The notes beneath the pieces were generated by a model that was not told the DNA's origin, did not search any database, and saw only the letters and a program-made list of their open reading frames with translations. Position numbers and translations under genes: made by a program. A stretch of 64,000 nucleotides of DNA from Escherichia coli (GTDB taxonomy: Bacteria; Pseudomonadota; Gammaproteobacteria; Enterobacterales; Enterobacteriaceae), in NCBI RefSeq assembly GCF_003334785.1, contig NZ_QOWV01000010.1. The stretch is one strand, 5' to 3'. Numbering within the stretch: position 1 is the first letter of the stretch; each line of letters begins with the position of its first letter. This document shows positions 36,160 to 39,569 of this stretch, in pieces.

Positions 36160-37248
36160 ATGGAGAGGATTGTCGTTACTCTCGGGGAACGTAGTTACCC
36201 AATTACCATCGCATCTGGTTTGTTTAATGAACCAGCTTCATTCTTACCGCTGAAATCGGGCGAGCAGGTCATGTTGGTCACCAACGAAACCCTGGCTCCT
36301 CTGTATCTCGATAAGGTCCGCGGCGTACTTGAACAGGCGGGTGTTAACGTCGATAGCGTTATCCTCCCTGACGGCGAGCAGTATAAAAGCCTGGCTGTAC
36401 TCGATACCGTCTTTACGGCGTTGTTACAAAAACCGCATGGTCGCGATACTACGCTGGTGGCGCTTGGCGGCGGCGTAGTGGGCGATCTGACCGGCTTCGC
36501 GGCGGCGAGTTATCAGCGCGGTGTCCGTTTCATTCAAGTCCCGACGACGTTACTGTCGCAGGTCGATTCCTCCGTTGGCGGCAAAACTGCGGTCAACCAT
36601 CCCCTCGGTAAAAACATGATTGGCGCGTTCTACCAACCTGCTTCAGTGGTGGTGGATCTCGACTGTCTGAAAACGCTTCCCCCGCGTGAGTTAGCGTCGG
36701 GGCTGGCAGAAGTCATCAAATACGGCATTATTCTTGACGGTGCGTTTTTTAACTGGCTGGAAGAGAATCTGGATGCGTTGTTGCGTCTGGACGGTCCGGC
36801 AATGGCGTACTGTATTCGCCGTTGTTGTGAACTGAAGGCAGAAGTTGTCGCCGCCGACGAGCGCGAAACCGGGTTACGTGCTTTACTGAATCTGGGACAC
36901 ACCTTTGGTCATGCCATTGAAGCTGAAATGGGGTATGGCAATTGGTTACATGGTGAAGCGGTCGCTGCGGGTATGGTGATGGCGGCGCGGACGTCGGAAC
37001 GTCTCGGGCAGTTTAGTTCTGCCGAAACGCAGCGTATTATAACCCTGCTCAAGCGGGCTGGGTTACCGGTCAATGGGCCGCGCGAAATGTCCGCGCAGGC
37101 GTATTTACCGCATATGCTGCGTGACAAGAAAGTCCTTGCGGGAGAGATGCGCTTAATTCTTCCGTTGGCAATTGGTAAGAGTGAAGTTCGCAGCGGCGTT
37201 TCGCACGAGCTTGTTCTTAACGCCATTGCCGATTGTCAATCAGCGTAA
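36160..37248 (+). CDS. aroB: 3-dehydroquinate synthase
   Basis: 362-aa ORF recognised as AroB. Confidence 0.97.
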
Positions 37249-37339
37249 CAACAAGAAAGGTCAGGCCGCTTATCAAGCGGTCTATTAGCTTCAGGTTAAT
37301 TGCAACGTGGTAAGCATTAACCTTTTAGTGGGGTGTTAA

Positions 37340-38626
37340 ATGGATGAATTCAAACCAGAAGACGAGCTGAAACCCGATCCCAGCGATCGTCGTACTGGTC
37401 GTTCTCGTCAATCTTCTGAACGTTCTGAGCGTACTGAACGTGGCGAACCGCAGATCAATTTTGATGATATTGAACTTGATGACACTGACGATCGCCGTCC
37501 GACTCGTGCGCAAAAAGAGCGCAATGAGGAACCGGAAATCGAAGAAGAAATTGACGAATCCGAAGATGAAACCGTGGATGAAGAGCGCGTAGAGCGTCGT
37601 CCGCGTAAGCGCAAAAAAGCAGCCAGTAAACCCGCTTCTCGTCAGTATATGATGATGGGCGTCGGCATTCTGGTTCTACTGCTGTTGATCATCGGTATCG
37701 GTTCTGCGCTAAAAGCCCCCTCGACCACTTCCAGCGATCAAACCGCGTCTGGCGAGAAGAGTATTGATCTTGCTGGCAATGCGACCGATCAGGCGAATGG
37801 CGTGCAGCCAGCGCCGGGAACCACGTCTGCGGAAAATACTCAGCAGGATGTTTCTCTGCCACCGATCTCTTCTACGCCGACTCAAGGGCAAACCCCGGTG
37901 GCAACGGATGGTCAACAACGTGTTGAAGTGCAGGGTGACCTGAACAATGCGCTGACCCAGCCACAAAATCAGCAACAGCTGAACAATGTGGCGGTCAATT
38001 CCACGTTGCCGACTGAACCCGCAACGGTTGCGCCTGTTCGCAATGGCAATGCATCGCGTGACACGGCGAAAACGCAAACCGCTGAACGTCCGTCCACTAC
38101 GCGCCCAGCTCGTCAGCAGGCGGTGATTGAACCGAAAAAACCGCAAGCAACCGTGAAAACGGAGCCGAAGCCGGTAGCACAGACGCCGAAGCGTACTGAA
38201 CCAGCTGCCCCTGTGGCGAGCACGAAGGCACCGGCTGCGACTTCTACGCCAGCACCAAAAGAGACGGCGACTACGGCTCCAGTACAGACGGCATCCCCGG
38301 CGCAAACCACGGCAACACCCGCTGCTGGGGCGAAGACCGCAGGTAATGTTGGTTCGTTGAAATCGGCACCGTCCAGCCATTACACTCTGCAGCTGAGCAG
38401 TTCCTCTAACTACGACAACCTGAACGGTTGGGCGAAGAAAGAGAATCTGAAAAACTACGTTGTCTATGAAACGACGCGTAATGGTCAGCCGTGGTATGTC
38501 CTGGTTTCTGGCGTGTACGCTTCGAAAGAAGAGGCGAAAAAAGCGGTATCTACATTGCCAGCAGATGTCCAGGCCAAAAACCCGTGGGCGAAACCGCTGC
38601 GTCAGGTACAGGCCGATCTGAAGTAA
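37340..38626 (+). CDS. damX: Cell-division protein DamX (C-terminal SPOR domain, low-complexity linker)
   Basis: 428-aa ORF; acidic N-terminus, one TM segment, Pro/Thr/Ala/Gln-rich region. Confidence 0.95.
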
Positions 38627-38732
38627 TCAAGGTTATCTCCCGCAATGGTTTATCGTTGCGGGAGTTGCCTGAAGCGCTGGATGCTGTCGGAGCTTTCTCC
38701 ACAGCCGGAGAAGGTGTAATTAGTTAGTCAGC

Positions 38733-39569
38733 ATGAAGAAAAATCGCGCTTTTTTGAAGTGGGCAGGGGGCAAGTATCCCCTGCTTGATGATATTAAACG
38801 GCATTTGCCCAAGGGCGAATGTCTGGTTGAGCCTTTTGTAGGTGCCGGGTCGGTGTTTCTCAACACCGACTTTTCTCGTTATATCCTTGCCGATATCAAT
38901 AGCGACCTGATCAGTCTCTATAACATTGTGAAGATGCGTACTGATGAGTACGTACAGGCCGCACGCGAGCTGTTTGTTCCCGAAACAAATTGCGCCGAGG
39001 TTTACTATCAGTTCCGCGAAGAGTTCAACAAAAGCCAGGATCCGTTCCGTCGGGCGGTACTGTTTTTATATTTGAACCGCTACGGTTACAACGGCCTGTG
39101 TCGTTACAATCTGCGCGGTGAGTTTAACGTGCCGTTCGGCCGCTACAAAAAACCCTATTTCCCGGAAGCAGAGTTGTATCACTTCGCTGAAAAAGCGCAG
39201 AATGCCTTTTTCTATTGTGAGTCTTACGCCGATAGCATGGCGCGCGCAGATGATGCATCCGTCGTCTATTGCGATCCGCCTTATGCACCGCTGTCTGCGA
39301 CCGCCAACTTTACGGCGTATCACACAAACAGTTTTACGCTTGAACAACAAGCGCATCTGGCGGAGATCGCCGAAGGTCTGGTTGAGCGCCATATTCCAGT
39401 GCTGATCTCCAATCACGATACGATGTTAACGCGTGAGTGGTATCAGCGCGCAAAATTGCATGTCGTCAAAGTTCGACGCAGTATAAGCAGCAACGGCGGC
39501 ACACGTAAAAAGGTGGACGAACTGCTGGCTTTGTACAAACCAGGAGTCGTTTCACCCGCGAAAAAATAA
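38733..39569 (+). CDS. dam: DNA adenine methyltransferase (GATC)
   Basis: 278-aa ORF; DPPY motif (CDPPYAP). Confidence 0.97.

Follow-up and report, generated by a model that had tools for sequence, protein, structure and literature searches.

Close described counterparts of the region analysed here are the linkers of DedD and FtsN, which resemble that of DamX in being predicted to be disordered; for DedD, disorder of the equivalent region has been shown by NMR (PMC7642682), and that of FtsN has been described as a spacer of some 70 nm that lacks structure (bioRxiv 10.1101/2022.07.01.498525). The DamX linker is likewise reported to be unstructured and to be the largest among inner-membrane SPOR proteins (PMC7642682; bioRxiv 10.1101/2022.07.01.498525), making it the longest of the three when compared with FtsN and DedD (PMC7642682). 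It also differs from those two in containing a conserved block, at residues 169-236. No counterpart of the essential 'E' domain of FtsN is known in the DamX linker.

The region studied here, positions 37850-38360 of a 64,000-nucleotide stretch of Escherichia coli DNA (referred to below as the window), lies within damX and codes for DamX residues 171-341, most of the periplasmic linker. The layout of this linker is already known, no new system is involved, and the results matter little beyond annotation hygiene. We consider it highly probable that the region is most of a disordered tether running from the transmembrane (TM) helix to the SPOR domain, that the long antisense open reading frames (ORFs) opposite it are not genes, and that rare indels within it are tolerated. 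DamX would act as a bitopic inner-membrane divisome protein in which a linker of about 212 residues, rich in Ala, Thr, Pro and Gln (plus Lys), joins the TM helix to the SPOR domain; with such a linker, the N-terminus could remain cytoplasmic and the SPOR domain still extend to septal peptidoglycan and attach to its denuded glycan strands. Both the tether function and disorder in vivo are suggested by structure prediction, the literature and the analogy with DedD and FtsN.

damX and its genetic context

The damX coding sequence occupies positions 37340..38626 on the plus strand (428 codons and a stop), and its product scored 848.8 bits against the NCBIfam DamX equivalog NF008153 (cut-off 256), with profile positions 1-424 aligned to residues 1-428, that is, over the full length. 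It is preceded by aroB (36160..37248, an ORF of 362 aa) and followed by dam (38733..39569, 278 aa). The gene order aroK-aroB-damX-dam-rpe is annotated likewise in E. coli GF4-3 and is also found in Salmonella and Escherichia albertii contigs.

At the DNA level, no difference (100% identity) separates the window gene from damX as annotated in E. coli strain 300709. E. coli K-12 carries this same gene: DNA identity to K-12-type strains is 99.9%, the aroB-damX-dam context is shared and the SPOR domain matches PDB entry 2LFV, 'Protein damX' (residues 335-428, E=1.4e-55). Nothing of substance sets it apart from the K-12 protein, the form found here being the common one of 428 aa, and a few substitutions separate it from the alleles of other E. 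coli lineages. All 5426 complete E. coli genomes searched carry a copy with at least 95% identity. For one of these 5426 copies, the record bears a plasmid label in place of a chromosome label, probably because the replicon is mislabelled or chimeric.

Domain organisation of DamX

An AlphaFold2 model of DamX, built on a family alignment of 32 sequences, was combined with composition, hydropathy, conservation and domain searches to delimit four parts. The first (aa 1-101, 37340..37642, plus strand, as for all the parts below) is rich in Glu, Arg and Asp (E 21%, R 17%, D 13%) and was modelled at pLDDT 42-60 without secondary structure; this N-terminal region is reported to be cytoplasmic (bioRxiv 10.1101/2022.07.01.498525). 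A single predicted TM helix follows at about aa 102-125 (37643..37714), where AlphaFold2 places a helix at residues 101-121 (pLDDT 82-88), hydropathy reaches its maximum (aa 106-124) and the family alignment has its most conserved block outside the SPOR domain (0.77). The membrane orientation of DamX is reported to be bitopic and N-in (bioRxiv 10.1101/2022.07.01.498525).

The third part is the predicted disordered periplasmic linker (aa 126-337, 37715..38350), with a composition of A 16%, T 16%, P 12% and Q 10%. The model gives residues 125-334 a pLDDT of 32-52 and not a single DSSP element, and a Pfam search returned no domain in residues 126-344. Last comes the C-terminal SPOR domain, which binds septal peptidoglycan (aa 338-428, 38351..38623). 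It was recognised by Pfam PF05036 at residues 345-418 (E=3.7e-14), and its fold is well defined in the model (residues 337-428, pLDDT 93-95).

The cytoplasmic part also holds a 9-nt tandem repeat, TTCTGAACG x3.1, at positions 37414-37441, which encodes SER-SER-TER and is the sole match of Tandem Repeats Finder in damX. One unit (SER) of this repeat is lost in P0277, a rare E. coli allele of 425 aa.

Composition of the linker and its DNA

The original prediction described the centre of DamX as a low-complexity linker, and this proved well founded, the compositional bias being far above what chance would give. Residues 263-338 consist of 24% A, 20% T, 17% P and 11% K, and the lowest-entropy 76-aa stretch of DamX (aa 259-334, positions 38114-38341, plus strand) has an entropy of 2.94 bits, the minimum over all 46 proteins of the window; among the 14,106 stretches of 76 aa in the other 45 proteins, the minimum is 3.32 and the mean 3.91 (sd 0.13). 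Both peptides that had been quoted as examples of the bias are present in DamX, at aa 323-335 and 298-327.

The underlying DNA had been called GC-rich and repetitive, of which only the former part stands, and that in moderate degree. GC makes up 52.7% of the window overall but 59.1% of 37850-38360 and 62.1% of 38100-38360, whereas the T content falls to 14.7% and 11.5% in the same two segments, against 23.7% window-wide; the depletion in T is a more telling feature than the moderately raised GC. As for repetitiveness, nothing exceeded shuffled controls. A computational check for exact tandem repeats, which had been suggested together with the prediction, revealed none in 37850-38360, and Tandem Repeats Finder reported no array there with a score of at least 30. 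A search for imperfect repeats (seed 7) returned only imperfect pairs of 12-19 nt; the longest exact direct repeat is 10 nt, which codon-shuffled controls equalled (p=0.32), and the self-similarity of the protein was not above that of shuffles either (p=0.26 and 0.82).

A conserved block and a variable spacer within the linker

The alignment of 32 Enterobacterales-type homologues divides most of the linker into two parts. A moderately conserved block spans aa 169-236 (37844..38047, plus strand), with a mean majority-residue fraction of 0.52, compared to 0.28 in the rest of the linker. Within this block P227 is invariant among the 32 homologues and P180, L223, P224, T225 and A228 are nearly so, and its length is nearly constant (45-80 aa, mostly 65-72). 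Two sequence motifs can be discerned inside the block, amid a linker otherwise predicted to be unstructured.

The segment adjoining the SPOR domain (aa 237-337, 38048..38350, plus strand) is rich in Ala, Thr, Pro and Lys, hypervariable, and has the lowest-entropy stretch described above as its core. Its homologous segment (aa 237-338) is 53-139 aa long in the 32 family members, and six of 11 deletion variants (representing five distinct deletions) fall in aa 237-337. Over a broader set of 77 Enterobacterales representatives, linker length (TM helix to SPOR domain) had a median of 176 aa and extremes of 20 and 434 aa, A+P+T+Q+S together making up a median of 53% of the residues; DamX of Salmonella is 425 or 429 aa long. 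Length variation in the family lies mostly in the spacer next to the SPOR domain. This spacer is evolutionarily plastic, yet effectively fixed in E. coli. The DamX linker has two parts, the conserved block (about 68 aa) and a hypervariable spacer whose length differs two- to three-fold across Enterobacterales, a layout that could guide linker-length experiments on SPOR proteins.

Buttiauxella provides an example of variation at a shorter scale. Its DamX sequences (P0121 and P0288-P0299) belong to a single cluster at 90% identity; they contain (Thr-Ala)2-5, depending on the strain, in the segment homologous to the E. coli Ala/Thr/Pro spacer, and range from 436 to 442 aa. The (Thr-Ala)n run is a true microsatellite-like length polymorphism, absent from E. 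coli.

As aa 169-236 are conserved, bridging a distance may not be the sole role of the linker, and the block may be a binding motif. The alternative that follows is that only aa 237-337 act as a spacer, with aa 169-236 serving as a module for partner binding, perhaps through a short linear motif that becomes folded upon contact with a divisome protein or a peptidoglycan synthase. The difference in conservation, the near-invariant residues and the nearly constant block length would all be accounted for in this way, and DamX does interact with and stimulate PBP1B (PMC7642682). Against this, the block is unstructured in the AlphaFold2 model (pLDDT 42-50, without secondary structure) and corresponds to no Pfam domain, we found no experiment in the literature that maps an interaction to aa 169-236, and parts of these residues are deleted in two rare E. 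coli alleles (P0006 and P0017). A binding module at aa 169-236 is thus a genuine possibility, though we would bet against it. Under the tether model that we prefer, the block is followed by a fast-evolving, indel-tolerant Ala/Thr/Pro/Lys spacer at aa 237-337; lacking any fold that an indel could break, this spacer would tolerate the rare length alleles.

Length alleles within E. coli

That the length of the linker may vary between strains, as originally suggested, is true to a very small extent within E. coli, where variation comes down to 40 of 5426 complete genomes and rare database entries. About 99% of the 5426 complete genomes have the same damX length. In a sample of 40 spread across these 5426 genomes, damX was 1287 nt long in 39, the exception being the lowest-ranked genome of the 40, that of GF4-3, with 1299 nt. 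Alignment with GF4-3 DNA placed the difference at a 12-mer, ACGCCAGCACCA (encoding Thr-Pro-Ala-Pro), which is present as a single copy in the window (38246..38257, plus strand). In the resulting 432-aa allele, an extra 12 nt, ACGCCAGCCGCA (encoding TPAA), are inserted after position 38245, directly upstream of ACGCCAGCACCA, so that the two near-identical 12-mers make up an imperfect two-copy tandem repeat.

When a 40-nt junction query was compared with the 5426 complete E. coli genomes, the allele with the additional 12 nt was found in exactly 40 (0.74%), strain HS among them. A longer query of 106 nt had given 226 carriers, a figure inflated by partial alignments and therefore rejected. The extra TPAA residues also occur in E. 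albertii, E. marmotae and another Escherichia species. Given that these sister species carry them, the sequences point to the 428-aa form as the derived one, which would have arisen by a 12-nt deletion between 8-nt direct repeats, and to the 432-aa allele as either ancestral or reacquired. In that case 0.74% of complete E. coli genomes keep what is probably the ancestral allele. No complete E. coli genome had a large deletion of the segment 38150-38380: all 5426 covered 80% or more of the query, and in only 41 was the match below 95% identity.

Further indel alleles, all rare, come from the protein collection, with length changes of -39 to +5 aa. Those in the linker amount to +2, +3, +4, -13, -21, -23, -26, -28, -29 and -39 aa, the E. 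coli linker deletions of 13-39 aa leaving proteins of 399-415 aa and of 389 aa. Five of six E. coli variants, and one 392-aa variant from E. albertii, have their deletion within aa 288-327, and one 22-aa deletion maps to the cytoplasmic acidic region. Projected on the window DNA, the deletions are flanked by 0-10 nt of microhomology. Among 15 sampled members of the main 90% identity cluster, 11 were 428 aa long and the others 432, 425, 430 and 433 aa; the differences correspond to duplications of VAP and of EP, to the TPAA insertion and to the deletion of SER in the 9-nt repeat. The EP and VAP duplications as written were not seen in any complete E. coli genome: the junction queries used for them had flanks long enough for wild-type genomes to match, and the top-ranked matches were gapped or two-piece alignments to wild-type sequence.

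Rare E. coli indels take the form either of local duplications (VAP, EP, TPAA) or of microhomology-flanked deletions. The literature and this sequence pattern suggest slippage as their source, and the rare length alleles could be seen as in-frame slippage or microhomology events.

Such alleles might alternatively be read as the products of a hypermutable, repeat-driven, contingency-like region that diversifies DamX between strains. Indel alleles ranging from +4 to -39 aa do exist in the linker, the 432-aa allele has its imperfect two-copy 12-nt repeat, and the (Thr-Ala)n run varies among Buttiauxella strains. However, the window allele lacks a tandem repeat, and a single variant allele (the 40 genomes above) is found among complete genomes, one that looks ancestral rather than recurrent since sister species share it. 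The alleles with large deletions are clusters of only one or two sequences, some of them from TPA or metagenome assemblies. Moreover, DamX is periplasmic and not surface-exposed (bioRxiv 10.1101/2022.07.01.498525), so no diversifying selection is expected. We therefore regard a contingency-like role of the linker as very improbable and retain the reading of a tether with rare, tolerated indels. The comparison across strains that had been recommended leaves the idea of length variation unrefuted but lends it little weight, large variation being confined to comparisons between genera and to cases such as the Buttiauxella strains.

Two unusual groups of entries were noted in the protein collection. 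P0008 and P0009 (421 aa, from ENA metagenome contigs) combine a Salmonella-like cytoplasmic N-terminus with an E. coli-like TM helix, linker and SPOR domain, and are either inter-genus recombinants or chimeric assemblies. P0021, a 350-aa protein with 890 member sequences, covers only about 82% of DamX and is probably the result of an alternative downstream start annotation or of a truncation.

Open reading frames antisense to damX

The reverse-strand ORFs of 223 aa and 65 aa that had been pointed out opposite the linker both exist, at 37709..38380 and 38113..38310 (minus strand). The first is in the codon-aligned antisense frame and the second in the antisense frame that shares its wobble positions with damX; the product of the latter is hydrophobic. 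The view that they are by-products of linker composition is upheld by synonymous shuffles of damX, which give equally long open runs. The codon-aligned antisense frame is open over 305 codons, compared with 270+/-59 in shuffles (p=0.35), and the other antisense frames over 88 or 77 codons, compared with 95+/-23 and 75+/-16 (p from 0.35 to 0.59 over the frames). Nor is damX exceptional in the window, where nine of 46 genes have codon-aligned antisense runs of at least 240 codons, the longest reaching 518.

The cause lies in codon usage: the codon-aligned antisense frame stays open because damX contains no TTA, no TCA and only two CTA codons (codons 113 and 124). More generally, antisense stops are rare because Ala, Thr, Pro, Gln and Lys codons make the sense strand poor in T. 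Across the window, trinucleotides that are the reverse complement of a stop occupy 3.5% of positions; in the region they occupy 1.8%, with no instance in the codon-aligned phase.

Comparison with relatives leads to the same conclusion. The 223-aa frame is interrupted by one stop in E. albertii, by three in Salmonella enterica and by six in a third genus. Between damX of the window and that of Salmonella, the span of this ORF has 39, 27 and 126 differences at the first, second and third codon positions of damX respectively, and the 149 codons concerned divide into 94 synonymous and 55 nonsynonymous in the damX frame, against 23 synonymous and 126 nonsynonymous (about 85%) in the antisense frame. 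Substitutions thus follow the damX frame. As for the 65-aa ORF, its GTG start is replaced by GTA in E. albertii, by GAG in Salmonella and by GTT in the third genus, and one E. coli strain lacks its stop. Neither product matched an NCBIfam family, and a search of 37000-39000 against Rfam with a permissive E-value returned no match. A promoter and terminator scan yielded two weak promoter-like sites, one per strand, where 0.8 would be expected; the only one on the minus strand (37491-37464) is on the 3' side of both antisense ORFs and, being downstream of them, could not drive them.

It could nevertheless be proposed that one of the two ORFs, or a shorter part of it, is a real gene that overlaps damX on the opposite strand. 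In eight of eight E. coli alleles examined the two ORFs are intact, and identity of the 65-aa product reaches 98-100% across the seven of equal length; this frame shares wobble positions with damX, however, and its conservation within E. coli is therefore uninformative. In a translation-reporter transposon screen, a candidate nested out-of-frame coding sequence was found in damX, with an 'unusual transposon insertion profile' (bioRxiv 10.1101/2024.09.06.611592). That candidate came from one replicate only, the text states neither its strand nor its position, and the largest candidate given there is 138 aa (bioRxiv 10.1101/2024.09.06.611592). The run lengths matched by damX shuffles and common in neighbouring genes, the stops and lost start in relatives, the concentration of changes at damX third positions, with antisense codons mostly altered in meaning, the lack of NCBIfam and Rfam matches and the misplaced promoter-like site all speak against such a gene, which we judge to be extremely unlikely. 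It is no less doubtful that the screen detected a short, E. coli-restricted out-of-frame protein translated inside damX and corresponding to the 65-aa ORF or to part of the 223-aa ORF; were it so, an overlapping gene would have been born de novo within the low-complexity linker.

The 223-aa and 65-aa antisense ORFs are artefacts, not genes. They resemble the 'shadow ORFs' found opposite T-poor or GC-rich genes in having no in-phase TTA, CTA or TCA, in being typical of neighbouring genes and in lacking conservation, and damX is a textbook case that does not differ from them in any respect. As a matter of annotation hygiene, gene calls should not be made for the long ORFs on the strand opposite damX.

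A promoter-like site and hairpins upstream of dam

Internal dam promoters have been reported. A sigma-70-like site is present at 38357-38386 on the plus strand (TTGAAA, an 18-nt spacer and TACACT, nine of 12 positions matching the consensus), inside damX, with dam beginning about 350 nt further downstream; resemblance to the consensus is not in itself evidence of function. Between the damX stop and the dam start lie two strong RNA hairpins, at 38637-38664 and 38692-38715, with stems of 11 bp and 9 bp, neither of them followed by a T run or matched in Rfam. The folding energy of this intergenic region, -47.6 kcal/mol, is well below that of shuffled sequences (-30.8+/-3.6 kcal/mol; z=-4.7).
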